IMG/VR virus record: IMGVR_UViG_2778261571_000011
Location: 1-5,183 of that record
Source of the DNA: a virus
Lineage: Duplodnaviria > Heunggongvirae > Uroviricota > Caudoviricetes
Reading direction: 5' to 3' (one strand)
DNA: 5,183 nt
Part shown: piece by piece, positions 1 to 5,183 of the stretch
Layout of the letters: each line of letters begins with the position of its first letter
How positions within the stretch are numbered: the stretch's first letter is position 1
Made by a program: the position numbers and the translations under genes
The notes under the pieces: model-generated
What the model was told of the DNA's origin: nothing
The model's database searches: none
What the model saw: only the letters and a program-made list of their open reading frames with translations

Positions 1-309
1 ATGATTCTGACTCTGAATGATAAGCGCGAAATATCGCAAATAATCGCAAGTTTTACTGATGCAGATTACGAGCGAATCAACAGTGAAGTTGATCGCCTCT
101 GCAAACGTTGCGACCCAATAAGCGAAATGCTTCGCTCATATAAACCAGATGAACACACTAAGGACGCTATCGACTGGCTGGAAGATGATGACTGTAACTA
201 TCAGGAAAAAGCCGCTGAATGGTTCTGGGATGCAATAACCGAAAGAGTTAAGGCTGAATATGCCTTCGCAATATTCAAACGCAGACATATTTTTGGAGAA
301 GCTGCATGA
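1..309 (+). CDS. Hypothetical phage protein (102 aa), function unknown
   Basis: ORF begins at ATG at position 1, so the true start could lie upstream of the window. Its TGA stop (307-309) overlaps the recT ATG (306-308) as ATGA, implying translational coupling. No recognisable motif. Confidence 0.5.
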   Translation: MILTLNDKREISQIIASFTDADYERINSEVDRLCKRCDPISEMLRSYKPDEHTKDAIDWLEDDDCNYQEKAAEWFWDAITERVKAEYAFAIFKRRHIFGEAA

Positions 310-1217
310 GCAATATCGTTGAATTCGTTAAACAGCAGGAGCAGTTATTCTGCGGAGCATTGACTGAACAGACGGTGACATGGGCTAAGGAAAGCCAGTT
401 TGCAATTCAGTATTTCCAGAAAAACGATTACCTTGCTAAAACGGCACTGGCAAATCCAACCAGCGCACAGAACGCCATCATCAATGTTGCGGCGATCGGC
501 ATCACCTTAAACCCGGCCAGCAAACTGGCTTATCTGGTTCCGCGCGACGGCATGGTGTGCCTTGATATCAGTTATATGGGATTGCTCCATATTGCAATGG
601 AGTCTGGTGTTATCTCATGGGGTCAGGCAAAACTTGTTCATGCTAACGATACCTATGAGTCAAACGGGCTTGATAAAGCACCAACCCATAAATACAACGC
701 CTTCGGTGATCGTGGTGATATCGTTGGCGTTTACTGCACAGTTAAGACGCCAGCAGGTGATTATCTAACGGAAGAGATGAGTCTGGCTGAAATTGAGGCT
801 GTAAGGAAAACAAGCAAGGCGGCCTTCAGCGATAAAGGACCATGGGTAAATCACTGGAATGAGATGGCGCGAAAGACGGTCGTAAAGCGTGCAAGCAAGT
901 ATTGGCCTAAGGCATCACGTCTTGATAGTGCTATTCACGTACTAAACGAAGAAGAAGGTGTGTGGACTGAACCAGTTATGCCGCACAAATCAGAGGAAGA
1001 TATCCGCGAAGATGAACGGAAACGCCAGCAGGAAATAATGGAAAAAGCACAACTTCTTTGTGATGAAATGGCTCAGGCTGAAAACATGGATGATTTGAAG
1101 AGATATTTTGCAGAAGCATATCGCCTGACATCTGGAATGAAATTGCAGCAGAACGTACAAGCCATTTACATAGAATGCAAAGCGAAACTGGAGGTTGCCA
1201 GTGAGCAAACTGTATGA
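306..1217 (+). CDS. recT: RecT-family single-strand annealing recombinase (RecT/Red-beta superfamily)
   Basis: 303-aa ORF with GGAGA Shine-Dalgarno at 295-299, 6 nt before the ATG. The segment GPWVNHWNEMARKTVVKRASKYWP closely resembles the conserved core of Rac-prophage RecT as I recall it (GPWVTHWEEMAKKTAIRRLFKYLP). Size and acidic C-terminus fit RecT. Confidence 0.85.
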   Translation: MSNIVEFVKQQEQLFCGALTEQTVTWAKESQFAIQYFQKNDYLAKTALANPTSAQNAIINVAAIGITLNPASKLAYLVPRDGMVCLDISYMGLLHIAMESGVISWGQAKLVHANDTYESNGLDKAPTHKYNAFGDRGDIVGVYCTVKTPAGDYLTEEMSLAEIEAVRKTSKAAFSDKGPWVNHWNEMARKTVVKRASKYWPKASRLDSAIHVLNEEEGVWTEPVMPHKSEEDIREDERKRQQEIMEKAQLLCDEMAQAENMDDLKRYFAEAYRLTSGMKLQQNVQAIYIECKAKLEVASEQTV

Positions 1218-1683
1218 AATTGCCAATGAATACGCAAAATTGATGGATTCAGATTTAGAACCAGAGATGATTGCTGACACAATAGAAGGCATGGAAGGAG
1301 AATTTACCGATAAAATAGAACAACTTCTCGCCATTATTAAAAATGAATCTGGTTATGCTGAACGCCTCAAGGAAGAGGCAAAGTCACTGAATGAACGAGC
1401 AGCAGTAATTCAAAATAAGATTGACAGCATCAAATCATATATAGCGTCATCGCTTGAAATGGTTGGCAAGAAAAAGATTAGAGCAGGTATTCACCAGGTA
1501 ACAATCCGCAAACCGTCAGAAACTGTAGAAATCATCGACTCAAGTGCCCTTCCTCCTGAATACGTTGAGTTTGAAACGACAATTAAAGCCGACAAGTTGG
1601 CAATCAAGCACCAACTAAAAGCAGGAATAAATATCCCAGGCGCTCAACTCAAGGTTGGGAAACCTTCACTTCTTATCAAATAA
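1201..1683 (+). CDS. Probable Siphovirus Gp157-family protein (RecT-associated, function unknown)
   Basis: ORF-track frame 1195..1683. I favour the GTG start at 1201, which has a GGAGG Shine-Dalgarno at 1190-1194 and 6-nt spacing. It overlaps the recT 3-prime end by 17 nt. Coiled-coil-rich N-terminus and position directly after recT match the Gp157 family from memory; not verified by search. Confidence 0.6.
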   Translation: MSKLYEIANEYAKLMDSDLEPEMIADTIEGMEGEFTDKIEQLLAIIKNESGYAERLKEEAKSLNERAAVIQNKIDSIKSYIASSLEMVGKKKIRAGIHQVTIRKPSETVEIIDSSALPPEYVEFETTIKADKLAIKHQLKAGINIPGAQLKVGKPSLLIK

Positions 1684-1694
1684 CGGTATCGACT

Positions 1695-2009
1695 ATGAAA
1701 AAGACTCCATGGGAGAAATGGGAAGTCGATTTCTTGCGCGAAGTGGCGGCGACAATGCCAGTTGAAGTTATCGCTGAAAAACTGGAAAGGACTGAAAAAG
1801 CAGTAATGGCGAAAGCAACAAGGATTGGCGCTGACATTGTTAGCCGACTTCGTGGAAGACGATGGACAAGAGCCGAAGTATCACTTTTCGGTAAGTTCTC
1901 CGCAGAAGAAATAGCAATTGCAACCTGCCGCTCAATTTATTCAGTAAGAGCTATGCGATACAAGCTAAAAAAACTCGATGAAGAAAGAGCGGGCATACGA
2001 ATAAATTAA
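1695..2009 (+). CDS. Small putative DNA-binding protein with two tandem HTH-like repeats (104 aa)
   Basis: Two internal repeats, WEKWEVDFL...[23 protein letters not shown] and WTRAEVSLF...[22 protein letters not shown]. Each contains an E-[VI]-I-A-x-x-L-x-R-[TS]-x-x-[AS]-V motif resembling LuxR/sigma-70 region-4 or Myb-type recognition helices. Inference from pattern only. Confidence 0.55.
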
Positions 2010-2025
2010 AAAAGAGGAATTTACC

Positions 2026-2190
2026 ATGAGAGGACTTGCATACAATCCCGGCATTCTTCCGGCAGAAATGATTATTCGCCAACGCGTAAAGCCAATGCCA
2101 TCGAGAGAGGAATTGCTAAAGAGAAATTCTTTTCCGTCAGTGAATCAAAACAAATATCTGAATGCGATGTGGCGGAGTGGGAAAAAATGA
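2026..2190 (+). CDS. Small basic protein, 54 aa ([54 protein letters not shown]); absent from the ORF track
   Basis: ATG at 2026 with AGAGGA Shine-Dalgarno at 2013-2018, 7-nt spacing. It fills the only otherwise unexplained gap in the operon. Its TGA stop (2188-2190) overlaps the ATG (2187-2189) of the next gene as ATGA. Confidence 0.45.
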
Positions 2191-2648
2191 AACAAATGAC
2201 ACTAATTGAGATGGATGGATTTCTGAAAGGTAAATGCATCCCATGTGATTTAAAGGTTAACGAAACAAACGCTGAATATCTGGTGCGTAAGTTCGGTGAG
2301 CTTGAATCAAAACTGGAAACGGCGTTGCGGGAGTGTCGTTCTGCTGGAATCACGATTGATAACCTTGAGGCTAAATGCGCGAAGATGGCTGCAGAAAATA
2401 CCTCGCTTAAGCAATCTGAGAAGGAATTTAATGACTTTTGTCGTGAGGAGTTTAGCGAATGGGAAGATGATGTTACTGAAACCCCAGCCACCGATGCTTT
2501 TCTGGCTGAAATTGAACGCAAAGCAATCCGCAAGTTCATTAACAGCATTGAACACATCCTGCGTGACAAACTGTCTCCGTATGACACCGAAGAGATGCTT
2601 GAGGCTATGCGTATTTTTCTGGAAGAACAGGAAGGTGAGCAAAAATGA
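2187..2648 (+). CDS. Acidic coiled-coil protein (153 aa from ATG 2187), possibly ead/Ea22-like
   Basis: The ORF track starts at GTG 2169. I prefer ATG 2187 because of the ATGA coupling with the upstream small ORF. Glu/Lys-rich heptad-like sequence; the [12 protein letters not shown] segment is reminiscent of Ea22-family proteins, from weak memory. Confidence 0.6.
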
Positions 2649-2962
2649 CGATCACAAAACAACGTGTAGAAGAAATCATATCCCGTATTGAAATGTATGG
2701 GCATGGTGCCGGGTATACCGCTGATGAGGTTTATGACCTTGCTGTACTGGCGCTGAATTTATCAAATATCGCAAAACTCAAGCGATACGAGCTTGATATG
2801 GATGGTTGTGACTCGTTCGGTCAGGATTGTGGCGCTGACATGACTGAAGATTCTGATGGCGATTATGTCCTGTTTGATGACGTGGTTAAGTTGTTTGAGT
2901 TTGATACAACCACTCAGAAGATAGAAAGCCCAGCAAAGGAGGCAGCCAGTGAGCGAGATTGA
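2645..2962 (+). CDS. Small strongly acidic protein (105 aa); N-terminal module shared with the DUF551 protein
   Basis: ATG 2645 overlaps the upstream stop (ATGA at 2645-2648); AGGTGA Shine-Dalgarno at 2633-2638. By my count about 24 Asp+Glu against 10 Lys+Arg, with an Asp-rich stretch (DMDGCDSFGQDCGADMTEDSDGDYVLFDD). The N-terminus [23 protein letters not shown] parallels MTTITKERLLTIKQWRETYGPGS of the 4124..4657 protein. Confidence 0.6.
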   Translation: MTITKQRVEEIISRIEMYGHGAGYTADEVYDLAVLALNLSNIAKLKRYELDMDGCDSFGQDCGADMTEDSDGDYVLFDDVVKLFEFDTTTQKIESPAKEAASERD

Positions 2963-3356
2963 CTATCAGGTACTGCGTGAGGCGGCAGAGAAAGCCGGTG
3001 AAGATAAGTGGCAGGCTAAAAAAATAAATGGTGATTTTTTCGTTATTCGTCACGGTAGTTATACAAGACAGCATGGCTACACATCGTATCAACCCATTGC
3101 GGAGATTGATTGTAAGCAAGTCCGGGATTTTGTTGCCAAGGCTAATCCGGCTACCGTGCTGGAATTACTGGATGAACTGGAAGAAGCAAAAAAGCGCATT
3201 GCAGAACTGGAAGCGCGGGAAATACTGCTCCCGGAACGTAGCAGCATGCTTCATAGAACAGATTTTCACGAGGATTACCAAACGGTAATGGCATACAAAG
3301 TTTCTGAGGTCATCGCTGCAATCCGCGCCGCTGGCATTCGCATCAAAGGAGAGTGA
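2949..3356 (+). CDS. Probable ead/Ea22-like family protein (135 aa)
   Basis: GTG start at 2949 with AAGGAGG at 2936-2942, 6-nt spacing; overlaps the upstream gene by 14 nt. N-terminus MSEIDYQVLREAAEKAGEDKWQA and coiled-coil LLDELEEAKKRIAELEARE resemble Ea22-like prophage proteins from memory. Confidence 0.55.
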   Translation: MSEIDYQVLREAAEKAGEDKWQAKKINGDFFVIRHGSYTRQHGYTSYQPIAEIDCKQVRDFVAKANPATVLELLDELEEAKKRIAELEAREILLPERSSMLHRTDFHEDYQTVMAYKVSEVIAAIRAAGIRIKGE

Positions 3357-3357
3357 G

Positions 3358-4113
3358 ATGATTCACTACCACGGTGGGCCTATTACTCCTGATACGTGCG
3401 CAATGAGAGCATGGAAAGGGCGACATGCGTTTATCAGTTTTGCGCATTCAGGCCAGATCAATCTCGCGGCTGAATACTGTCAGTCGTTCGCGCTGGACAA
3501 CGGTGCATTCACCGCCTGGAAAGCAGCTGGCAAAAACAAAATCGACTGGAGCGATTACTACGAGTTTGTCGCTCGCTGGAAGAATCACCCAGGATTCGAT
3601 TTTGCCATTATCCCTGATGTTATTGATGGCGGAGAGGAAGAAAATGATGCGCTTCTGAATGAGTGGCCTCACGGAAAACTAGCTGGCGTTCCAGTGTGGC
3701 ACATGAATGAAAGTGACGAGCGATTTATTCATTTGTGCAATGAGTTTCCGCGAGTGGCTATCGGTAGTTGTGGCGACTATGACGTAAAGCGCCCAACTCT
3801 TGCGGTAGCCAGAATGAAAGACCTGATTCGTCACATTGTTGATGAGCATGGTCAGCCGGTTACGAAACTACATGGATTGCGCATGTTAAATCCGCTGATA
3901 TTCACAAAATTACCCTTAGCCAGCGCAGATAGTACGAACGTCGCTCGAAACATCGGTATTGATAAAGCCTGGTCTGGGGCTTATGCACCTGCAAGTAAAG
4001 AGACACGCGCAGCATTAATGGTAGAACGGATTGAGGCACACAATAGCCCTGGTTCTCTTGCGTATTGTGAACAACGCGACCGCTTTGAAATGCAATTGCA
4101 ACTAGCAGTTTAA
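3358..4113 (+). CDS. Candidate TGT-superfamily (DpdA-like) transglycosylase, 251 aa; otherwise hypothetical
   Basis: AGGAG Shine-Dalgarno at 3347-3351, 6 nt before ATG 3358. An ordered motif series matches the TGT TIM-barrel active site: LDNGAF (aa 46-51, cf. TDSGGY), IIPDVIDGG (aa 84-92, cf. MAFDEC), IGSCGDY (aa 135-141, cf. AVGGLAVGE), LHGLRML (aa 171-177, cf. LMGVGKP), and ADSTNVAR (aa 190-197, cf. DMFDCVLPTR with the same Asp-to-Arg spacing). No Cys/His zinc motif. Motif-level inference only. Confidence 0.6.
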   Translation: MIHYHGGPITPDTCAMRAWKGRHAFISFAHSGQINLAAEYCQSFALDNGAFTAWKAAGKNKIDWSDYYEFVARWKNHPGFDFAIIPDVIDGGEEENDALLNEWPHGKLAGVPVWHMNESDERFIHLCNEFPRVAIGSCGDYDVKRPTLAVARMKDLIRHIVDEHGQPVTKLHGLRMLNPLIFTKLPLASADSTNVARNIGIDKAWSGAYAPASKETRAALMVERIEAHNSPGSLAYCEQRDRFEMQLQLAV

Positions 4114-4123
4114 GGATTAACAA

Positions 4124-4657
4124 ATGACCACTATAACCAAAGAGCGACTGCTGACAATCAAGCAGTGGCGCGAAACATACGGACCTGGTAGCAACGTTGT
4201 ACTGCCAGCAGAAGAAGCGGAAGAACTGGCGCGGATTGCACTGGCATCGCTGGAAGCAGAGCCGGTGGCGTGGAAGGCAACCTTCACGCAAATTGACAAT
4301 GAATATAATACGTTCACTGCTCTGTATTCTGACAAAGCAGAAGTCGAACGGTGGGTGCGACTGCATGAAATAGCTGACTTTCGGGCAGATATAACACCGC
4401 TTTATACAGCCCAACCAGCGCCGGTAGCTCCGGATGGTTGGATAAGCTGTAGTGAGCGAATGCCTGAAAAGAACCAGAACGTGCTTATTTCGGTGAATTT
4501 CGATAGTGATCTGGTTGAGCCGCTAATATGCTCCGCACGCTATACCGGAAGCACCTTTCGGCGCGGAGATGCAACGATTAAGCCGGGTAATGGTATTGAG
4601 CAAGCAACTCACTGGATACCTCTACCGGAACCGCCTCAGGAGGTTAACCGTGGCTAA
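4124..4657 (+). CDS. DUF551 domain-containing phage protein (177 aa)
   Basis: AAGGA Shine-Dalgarno at 4112-4116 overlapping the upstream TAA stop, 7 nt before the ATG. The C-terminal region WISCSERMPEKNQNVLISV...ATHWIPLPEPPQ matches the hallmark of DUF551 from enterobacterial prophages. Confidence 0.75.
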   Translation: MTTITKERLLTIKQWRETYGPGSNVVLPAEEAEELARIALASLEAEPVAWKATFTQIDNEYNTFTALYSDKAEVERWVRLHEIADFRADITPLYTAQPAPVAPDGWISCSERMPEKNQNVLISVNFDSDLVEPLICSARYTGSTFRRGDATIKPGNGIEQATHWIPLPEPPQEVNRG

Positions 4658-4719
4658 CCTGCAACTTGCCGTAAAAGGTGAATAACAATCCTCGCACTCG
4701 CGTGGATTTCTTTTATCTG

Positions 4720-4745
4720 AACTCGCTACGGCGAGTTTTGTTTTA
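4720..4745 (+). terminator. Candidate Rho-independent terminator ending the recT-to-DUF551 operon
   Basis: Perfect 7-bp stem AACTCGC / GCGAGTT (4720-4726 and 4731-4737) with a TACG loop, followed by the T-rich tract TTTGTTTTA. It lies 63 nt after the DUF551 stop. Confidence 0.45.
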
Positions 4746-4757
4746 TGGAGATGATAA

Positions 4758-4925
4758 ATGCACTTCCGAGTCACAGGTGAATGGAATGGAGAGTCATTCA
4801 ACAGGGTTATCGAAGCAGAGGACATCAACGACTGCTATAACCACTGGATGATATGGGCGCAGATAGCGCATGCAGACGTAACCAATATTCGAATTGAAGA
4901 ACTGAAAGAACACAAAAACGCCTGA
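4758..4925 (+). CDS. Small ORF, 55 aa (MHFRVTGEWNGESFNRVIEAEDINDCYNHWMIWAQIAHADVTNIRIEELKEHKNA); absent from the ORF track
   Basis: ATG at 4758 preceded by GGAG at 4747-4750, 7-nt spacing. It has no internal stops and is bracketed by two hairpin plus T-tract structures. Coding status is uncertain. Confidence 0.4.
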   Translation: MHFRVTGEWNGESFNRVIEAEDINDCYNHWMIWAQIAHADVTNIRIEELKEHKNA

Positions 4926-4937
4926 TGGCGGTTTTTT
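4914..4937 (+). terminator. Weaker terminator-like hairpin spanning the small-ORF stop codon
   Basis: AAAAACGCC (4914-4922), TGAT loop, GGCGG (4927-4931), then TTTTTT (4932-4937). Only 4 G-C pairs plus a bulged A-T extension; it might instead be part of an att arm. Confidence 0.3.
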
Positions 4938-4947
4938 ATTGCCTGAT

Positions 4948-4963
4948 TTGCAGGTTCGATTCC
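4948..4963 (+). other. Orphan tRNA T-arm fragment TTGCAGGTTCGATTCC; candidate integrase crossover core (att core)
   Basis: GCAGG (5-prime T-stem), TTCGATT (canonical T-loop) and CC, with no complementary 3-prime T-stem, acceptor stem or CCA following. From memory the 16 nt equal the matching stretch of E. coli tRNA-Arg(CCU) argW, the KplE1 integration target. Confidence 0.45.
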
Positions 4964-4982
4964 CTATTCGGAGATAGCACTC

Positions 4983-5183
4983 ATGCAACACGAACTACAG
5001 CCTGATTCACTGGTTGATTTGAAATTCATCATGGCTGATACTGGCTTCGGTAAAACCTTCATCTATGACCGGATTAAGTCCGGCGACCTGCCAAAAGCCA
5101 AAGTTATCCACGGACGCGCAAGATGGTTATATCGTGACCATTGTGAATTCAAAAATAAGCTCTTAAGCCGCGCTAATGGGTAA
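4983..5183 (+). CDS. torI: Winged-helix excisionase / recombination directionality factor (Xis/TorI-like, 66 aa)
   Basis: GGAGA Shine-Dalgarno at 4970-4974, 8 nt before the ATG. The core TFIYDRIKSGDLPKAKVIHGRARWLY parallels lambda Xis (TVRRWVRECRIFPPPVKDGREYLF). The 66-aa length and N-terminus MQHELQPDSLVDLKF match my recollection of TorI of prophage KplE1; the symbol is tentative. Confidence 0.75.
   Translation: MQHELQPDSLVDLKFIMADTGFGKTFIYDRIKSGDLPKAKVIHGRARWLYRDHCEFKNKLLSRANG

Follow-up and report, generated by a model that had tools for sequence, protein, structure and literature searches.

The 5,183-nucleotide stretch of caudovirus DNA analyzed here (IMG/VR record IMGVR_UViG_2778261571_000011, positions 1 to 5,183; hereafter, the window) carries a dpdA-like gene on its + strand at 3358..4113, which begins with ATG and encodes a protein of 251 amino acids. 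We propose that this protein is a minimal phage DpdA, a transglycosylase with a TIM barrel like that of tRNA-guanine transglycosylase (TGT), which would place host-supplied 7-deazaguanine into DNA. Taken as a whole, with the mechanism described below, this is the best explanation of our results, and we put its probability at roughly 0.6. Judged from its sequence, the protein very probably is a solo member of the phage DpdA family (a minimal DpdA1 in the sense of Hutinet et al. 2019, without the zinc subdomain). By analogy with studied relatives, modification of DNA with preQ0 from the host is plausible and somewhat favored, and a strong anti-restriction role of a solo DpdA is doubtful. Both the gene family and the idea that a solo DpdA uses host preQ0 were already published in 2019 (PMC6884629). 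An earlier sequence-only reading of this DNA had regarded the function as undescribed, which does not hold, as the 93%-identical YP_007011024 is among the proteins of the 76 DpdA-only phages in that study.

Homology to a validated phage DpdA carries the family assignment. The dpdA-like protein matched phrog_887, labelled queuine tRNA-ribosyltransferase, over residues 1-248 (E 2.9e-103), and the same profile was matched by CAjan DpdA (8e-96), HK106 gp29, and the homologues in Phleasolo, a 7-11-like phage and a Caulobacter phage. A profile from a diverse alignment of 52 homologues, with identity down to ~34% (A2), aligned to CAjan DpdA over 175 columns with an hhalign probability of 98.9% (E 2.3e-17). 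BLASTP also linked the two proteins (E 3e-8), pairing LDNGAF with LDSGAF, KLHG with KLHA, and ADST with CDSS, so that D47 is aligned with D63 of CAjan DpdA and D191 with D206. A weak match (E 1.3e-3) was found between residues 147-209 of CAjan DpdA, corresponding to ~132-194 of the window protein, and positions 200-259 of the PADLOC DpdA model. This stretch plausibly spans the Gly-rich loop and the nucleophile region, whose counterparts in Salmonella Montevideo DpdA are Gly206/207 and Asp256 (PMC10164549), but the correspondence is approximate, as profile positions are not residue numbers. The phrog_887 match, the hhalign comparison, and the AlphaFold2 barrel described below agree with the sequence-only reading in placing the protein in the TGT superfamily as a DpdA-like enzyme.

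The motifs follow the order seen in E. coli Tgt (DSGGF / IFDEC / AVGGL / YLMG / DCVMPTR), and the list of open reading frames (ORFs) and the 52-homologue alignment confirmed both the ORF and the residues that the sequence-only reading had assigned to each motif. The codons of D47-N-G-A-F51 (3496..3510, + strand) encode the counterpart of the TGT motif DSGGF, with a putative general acid/base Asp and a base-stacking aromatic residue; D47 was present in 52/52 members of A2 and F or Y at position 51 in 50/52, and the motif lies at the C-terminal end of strand 43-47. A candidate base-recognition Asp is encoded by the codons of D87-V-I-D90 (3616..3627, + strand), after strand 80-84 and at the end of the motif F82-A-I-I-P-D87. 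While D87 was found in 51/52 homologues, D90 was found in only 29/52, so D87 is the family-conserved Asp, even though CAjan DpdA has an Asp at the D90 position in the pairwise alignment. The codons from H172 to D191-S192 (3871..3933, + strand) cover strands 170-174 and 189-192 and include the putative nucleophile, D191, and its likely partner, H172; all three residues were conserved in 52/52 sequences and aligned to KLH187...CD206SS of CAjan DpdA. The remaining motifs are V133-A-I-G-S-C-G139, L171-H-G-L174, and R197, six residues past D191, and H115 was conserved in 51/52 homologues. The sequence alignments thus offer D47, D87, and D191 as conserved candidates for the acid/base, base-recognition, and nucleophile Asp of a phage DpdA. 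Among the catalytic Asp residues that the sequence-only reading had put forward, these three were the conserved ones, with D87 at a strand end, and D90 was variable. The zinc subdomain is lacking, as had also been claimed: Cys occurs only at positions 14, 41, 127, 138, and 237 of the protein, C237 alone lies past D191, and the zinc motif CxCxxC...H is absent (CDCYTC...H in E. coli Tgt).

An AlphaFold2 model computed from the diverse alignment had a mean pLDDT of 91.7 and a pTM of 0.89, and superseded an earlier model (pLDDT 72.6) whose shallow input alignment held only sequences of 65% identity or more. It shows eight beta-strand/helix repeats, a predicted TGT-like (beta/alpha)8 barrel, with conserved residues at or just past the C-terminal ends of strands 3 (D47), 4 (D87), 5 (H115), 6 (G136), 7 (H172), and 8 (D191). 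In the model, these positions are the canonical active-site face of a TIM barrel.

The dpdA-like ORF is a real gene under strong purifying selection. Compared with its SPN3UB orthologue, it has 93.2% amino acid identity and 81.5% nucleotide identity, with dN 0.042 and dS ~2.2 (dN/dS ~0.02), and six further orthologues with 77-94% amino acid identity were all intact, with saturated synonymous sites. An antisense ORF of 170 amino acids (3902-4414, - strand) covers the 3′ end of the dpdA-like gene and the 5′ end of the downstream DUF551 gene, and is most likely spurious, since the + frame is under strong purifying selection and its synonymous sites are saturated. Some database entries begin the ORF too late: an E. 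coli cluster of 236 amino acids starts from M16, and the SeKF_80 coding sequence (locus L010, 4169-4750 rather than 3998-4750) is without the conserved N-terminal HFHGGPIW strand. The long form is correct, as the first strand (residues 2-6) has a pLDDT of 97 in the model and H5 and G6 are nearly invariant.

A solo DpdA would need precursor from its host, and no homologue of FolE, QueD, QueC, QueE, or YhhQ was found in the window, in 80 IMG/VR loci with genes 67-100% identical to the dpdA-like gene (up to 10 kb per side, 1.06 Mb total), or in EH2115, a complete Stx1a-converting phage of 36.9 kb whose genome includes a 98.8%-identical gene; with CAjan queries and a cutoff of E<=0.01, very remote homologues could have escaped detection. 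The window, the complete phage, and the 80 loci thus all show the absence of preQ0 genes that marks a singleton DpdA, extending what the sequence-only reading had noted for the window. Among distant relatives, the homologue in Caulobacter phage DMCA (37% identical) is linked to the preQ0 pathway by an adjacent gene, as the 5′ end of its gene overlaps the 3′ end of one that is QueD/PTPS-like (PF01242, 22.5 bits; cutoff, 22.4). In the T1-like Drexlerviridae Escherichia phage Phleasolo, a 42%-identical homologue (locus L005, 6522-6998) directly follows a gene labelled by the depositors as "VUT family", the family of the preQ0 transporter YhhQ; neither Pfam nor tblastn with CAjan YhhQ confirmed this label.

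We propose that the gene would be expressed as part of a lambdoid prophage's early-left (recombination / ea / xis) operon on the + strand, and membership in this operon implies that production of the enzyme would follow induction or infection. Catalysis, by analogy with TGT and bacterial DpdA, would be a double displacement, in which D191 would attack deoxyguanosine at C1′ within duplex DNA, expelling guanine, with D47 as general acid/base and H172 as hydrogen-bond partner of D191, analogous to the D248/H226 pair of Cap10. The edge of the base would be read by D87 (or D90) and H115, with F51 stacking on the base, and the covalent intermediate would be resolved by a free 7-deazaguanine, preQ0 or possibly preQ1, from the FolE-QueD-QueE-QueC(-QueF) pathway of the host. 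As a result, newly replicated phage DNA would bear sparse marks of the dPreQ0 type, and these may weaken some of the defences that target DNA, restriction among them. In this scheme, we infer the substrate, the timing of expression, the level of modification, and the benefit to the phage.

Studied relatives provide the precedent. In bacterial DpdA, Asp256 is the nucleophile and Asp95 serves as general acid/base, while base recognition falls to Asp130 and His181 and base stacking to Phe99 and Leu236; replacing either catalytic Asp with Ala abolishes guanine exchange (PMC10164549). Phage DpdAs are active without DpdB and able to draw on host precursor (PMC6884629, PMC10516641). When expressed alone in E. 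coli, 9g DpdA produced 790 dPreQ0 per 10^6 nucleotides in plasmid DNA (PMC6884629), and nt-1 DpdA2 alone produced 926 per 10^6 nucleotides, which fell to zero in a queD deletion (PMC10516641). VH7D DpdA2 inserts preQ1, preQ0, or CDG, depending on which of them the host accumulates (PMC10516641). Deletion of CAjan DpdA abolishes dPreQ0 in phage DNA (PMC6884629, Table 2), and in CAjan and Rosebush, which have their own pathway, ~30% of G is modified (PMC6884629).

Several results weigh against a minimal DpdA that modifies phage DNA. The protein had no match at E<=10 in Pfam, NCBIfam, or PADLOC, and searches of PDB sequences, by phmmer or by hmmsearch with three profiles (A1, A2, A3), returned chance matches only, such as GCN4 and designed repeats. 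PF01702 was matched by 0 of the 52 A2 members, and A2 aligned to the single E. coli Tgt sequence with an hhalign probability of 0.6%. As controls, E. coli Tgt scored 2.8e-168 on PF01702, and the validated CAjan DpdA had neither a Pfam match nor a PDB phmmer match, making these negative searches uninformative. The profile check proposed in the sequence-only reading therefore had a mixed result, as no PF01702 or PADLOC/NCBIfam DpdA match was found, but phrog_887 was matched and homology to CAjan DpdA was detected. As grounds for giving up the assignment, that reading had also named the lack of a TGT/DpdA profile match together with a fold unlike the TGT barrel; the demand for a TGT profile match is too strict, since CAjan DpdA does not match PF01702 either. 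The structures that Foldseek recovered from the PDB were all generic TIM barrels, TrpA and dehydroquinase among them, with E>1e-3; with matches this generic and weak, the fold corroborates the sequence link to phage DpdA and is no stand-alone proof. The catalytic assignments themselves are putative, drawn from motif order and from the alignment to CAjan DpdA.

Biochemical precedents add to these points. Bacterial DpdA depends on the ATPase DpdB (PMC10164549), a partner that the window does not encode. Only two solo-DpdA phages have been measured, and of these, Orion was unmodified and Salmonella phage 7-11, the sole enterobacterial one, had only 50 dADG per 10^6 nucleotides, or ~0.02% of G (PMC6884629). 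The dADG of 7-11 is not the product we predict, and at that density, a genome of 40-50 kb would hold just a few marks, not enough to shield it from restriction in general. In the literature searched, we found no biochemical or mass-spectrometry measurement for the lambdoid solo-DpdA clade.

The level measured in 7-11, whose solo DpdA is of a 35%-identical type, fits an unlikely but serious alternative, in which the protein is an active DNA transglycosylase that sets a small number of 7-deazaguanine marks, at specific sequences, in phage and possibly host DNA and gives no broad anti-restriction protection. Such marks could evade one defence, label self DNA, or affect packaging or replication sites. 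Strong purifying selection and the spread of the gene over prophages of Enterobacterales, Vibrio, and Aeromonas imply a real benefit, and a DpdA can be strictly motif-specific, as with the GA motif of phage iggy. However, the low level in 7-11 may merely reflect a limited supply of precursor, and the sequence features favor neither this alternative nor the minimal DpdA described above. Extending the same thought, one could speculate, at somewhat longer odds, that solo DpdAs of temperate enterobacterial phages are sparse, sequence-specific writers that use the small host pool of preQ0/preQ1 at induction to mark phage and perhaps host DNA, in some relatives with an adjacent ParB-like analogue of DpdB. 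They would then form a minimal phage-borne epigenetic marking system, for example for evading one specific defence or for self/non-self marking among competing prophages.

It is improbable that transglycosylase activity has been lost, or that the protein is only a DNA-binding or glycosylase-like factor, as may hold for solo DpdAs in hosts without preQ0. The mycobacteriophage Orion has a solo DpdA and no detectable modification, phiSM DpdA1 was inactive in E. coli (PMC10516641), and singleton DpdAs form separate clusters that may have diverged functionally (Hutinet et al., PMC6884629). Nevertheless, the host of Orion has no preQ0 pathway, whereas E. coli has one, and three Asp and two His residues are invariant or nearly so in 52 sequences down to ~34% identity, with a dN/dS of ~0.02, a pattern unexpected for a decayed active site. 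Least probable of all is a substrate other than DNA, either tRNA, in which case the protein would be a minimal TGT that alters host translation, or a protein-linked 7-deazaguanine, comparable to Cap10 in type IV CBASS.

The surroundings of the gene are those of a lambdoid prophage. In the window, the gene order is RecT, a Gp157/Gam-like gene, unknowns, an Ead/Ea22-like gene, the dpdA-like gene, a DUF551 gene, a small ORF, and a TorI/excisionase-like ORF, which is the lambdoid early-left arm as it heads towards xis-int. A Shine-Dalgarno sequence, AAGGAG, was read directly from the sequence at 3345..3350 (+ strand); AGGAG lies 7 nucleotides from the ATG of the dpdA-like gene, and the Ead/Ea22-like ORF upstream has its stop codon (3354-3356) in between. 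That upstream gene (2949..3356, + strand; PF13935, E 8.8e-18) and the downstream DUF551 gene (4124..4657, + strand; PF04448, E 1.2e-20), which has its own AAGGA ahead, provide context, and the former is not a functional partner. With the upstream ORF ending at 3356 and the next one starting at 4124, the dpdA-like gene is one cistron of a tight, long + strand operon. We rejected the possibility of a moron that is autonomous in promoter and terminator, as no promoter-like site on the + strand flanks the gene and the counts of promoter and terminator sites do not exceed the shuffle expectation, and a structured RNA in the window was also rejected, with zero Rfam matches. The sole + strand terminator-like hairpin, an 8-bp stem followed by a T-rich tail at 4719-4738, separates the DUF551 gene from the small ORF (4758-4925), and such hairpins are no more numerous in the window than in shuffled sequence. 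Further upstream, the Gp157-family ORF (1195-1683; PHROG label "Mu Gam-like end protection") has a TTG start 23 nucleotides within the 3′ end of recT (306-1217), an overlap that suggests translational coupling in the recombination module.

A conserved partner gene was rejected as well, since clustering of the neighbours in the 80 loci gave only mosaic proteins of Ead/Ea22/DUF551 type. One family of this type, with an N-terminal "MTTITKER..." module, occurs on both sides of dpdA in 50/80 loci, and the window genes at 2645-2962, 2949-3356, and 4124-4657 are also of this type, with similar neighbours in loci L012-L091. The shared N-terminal modules may be recombination linkers that shift the cassette among the ea region, the nin region, and a plasmid of 91.6 kb with a gene for a Ref-family nuclease. 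The gene is indeed found in different places: in the ea region beside xis in the window and HK106, in the nin region past O/DnaC in SPN3UB, in an e14/ymf-like prophage of E. coli HSP60, and on that 91.6-kb plasmid, which is possibly a P1-like phage-plasmid.

In Pantoea phage AH07, a ParB-like gene of 440 amino acids (locus L092, 2182-3504) overlaps the start of an 89%-identical dpdA by 4 bp, and ParB-like homologues lie on the same strand, at most ~3 kb upstream of dpdA, in ~10/80 loci (L054, L044, L071, L050, L085, and L053 among them). As bacterial DpdA requires a ParB-like ATPase, these genes could encode a DpdB analogue. For the window gene itself, a DpdB-like partner was rejected, since the window lacks the ParB-like gene, for which PADLOC gave no DpdB match either.

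The family is widespread. At least 7,851 clusters of a collection of 5.8 billion proteins match the dpdA-like protein, with sources in Salmonella, E. coli, Providencia, Pantoea, Erwinia, Serratia, Yersinia, Hafnia, Pectobacterium, Cronobacter, Aeromonas, Shewanella, and Vibrio phages; among these matches, all named clusters carry the label "hypothetical protein", and precomputed Pfam domains are lacking throughout. Representatives at 50% identity gave 823 matches at E<=0.001. The gene was found in 204 of 5,426 complete E. coli genomes (>=95% nucleotide identity), and the E. coli protein WP_032988176.1 is 100% identical to the window protein. RefSeq always names it "hypothetical protein", an annotation that should be corrected for this protein and its relatives, given that the family has been listed as DpdA since 2019. 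If the enzyme is active, prophages in ~4% of complete E. coli genomes can introduce 7-deazaguanine into DNA through host metabolism alone, and the same would be true of many prophages of Salmonella, Serratia, Yersinia, Vibrio, and Aeromonas, some of them Stx-converting. Activity would also affect restriction and other DNA-targeting defences, make such phages targets of modification-dependent systems that recognize 7-deazaguanine DNA, such as GrwAB and Dag1, and possibly disturb nanopore base-calling of induced phage DNA.

Compared with known systems, the dpdA-like protein is not a tRNA TGT, a bacterial DpdA, or a Cap10 member, though it shares their fold. E. coli Tgt (PF01702) has the zinc subdomain (CxCxxC...H) and is ~125 residues longer, whereas the window protein does not match PF01702. 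Cap10 of type IV CBASS (PDB 9NTN) has 10% identity to the window protein and acts from a defence operon alongside a CD-NTase and the QueC-like Cap9, and neither Cap9 nor CD-NTase genes were found near the dpdA-like gene in the window or the 80 loci. Bacterial DpdA of S. Montevideo (PDB 7UI4) has 14% identity, and its length of 413 amino acids, structural Zn site, specific insertions, need for DpdB, and dpdA-K cluster (PMC10164549) have no counterpart in the window, whose protein matches no PADLOC or NCBIfam model.

DpdA of Escherichia phage CAjan (YP_009196829), a Queuovirinae DpdA1 like 9g DpdA, for which preQ0 insertion has been shown, is closer. It has phrog_887 in common with the window protein, both share LD[NS]GAF, PxxH, an IG-rich strand, KLH, and [AC]DS[TS], and both are without a Zn motif and a Pfam TGT match. 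Identity between the two is ~24% over 152 amino acids, and CAjan DpdA is longer (306 amino acids), with an extended C-terminus. Unlike the window gene, it lies within a folE-queD-queC-queE-yhhQ cluster, and ~32% of G is replaced in its phage.

The closest known group is that of the singleton DpdAs of temperate gamma-proteobacterial phages. Hutinet et al. described in 2019 a third group of 76 phages with DpdA and no homologues of G+/preQ0 biosynthesis, for which they proposed reliance on host preQ0 (PMC6884629). These singleton DpdAs group by host clade, the gamma-Proteobacteria included (PMC6884629), and Supplementary Data 1 of that study lists SPN3UB YP_007011024, HK106 YP_007151699, SfI, SEN1, BTP1, and 7-11 (PMC6884629). 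YP_007011024.1 is the product of the SPN3UB gene at 38030-38785, named queuine tRNA-ribosyltransferase in RefSeq, and YP_007151699.1 is HK106 gp29, which is 36% identical to the window protein. The window gene belongs to the same family, has a product of similar length (251-266 amino acids in the group), and is likewise without preQ0 genes. In HK106, the homologue lies just upstream of xis-int, the same place as in the window, and apart from the different position of the SPN3UB gene in the nin region, there is essentially no difference between the window gene and this singleton group.

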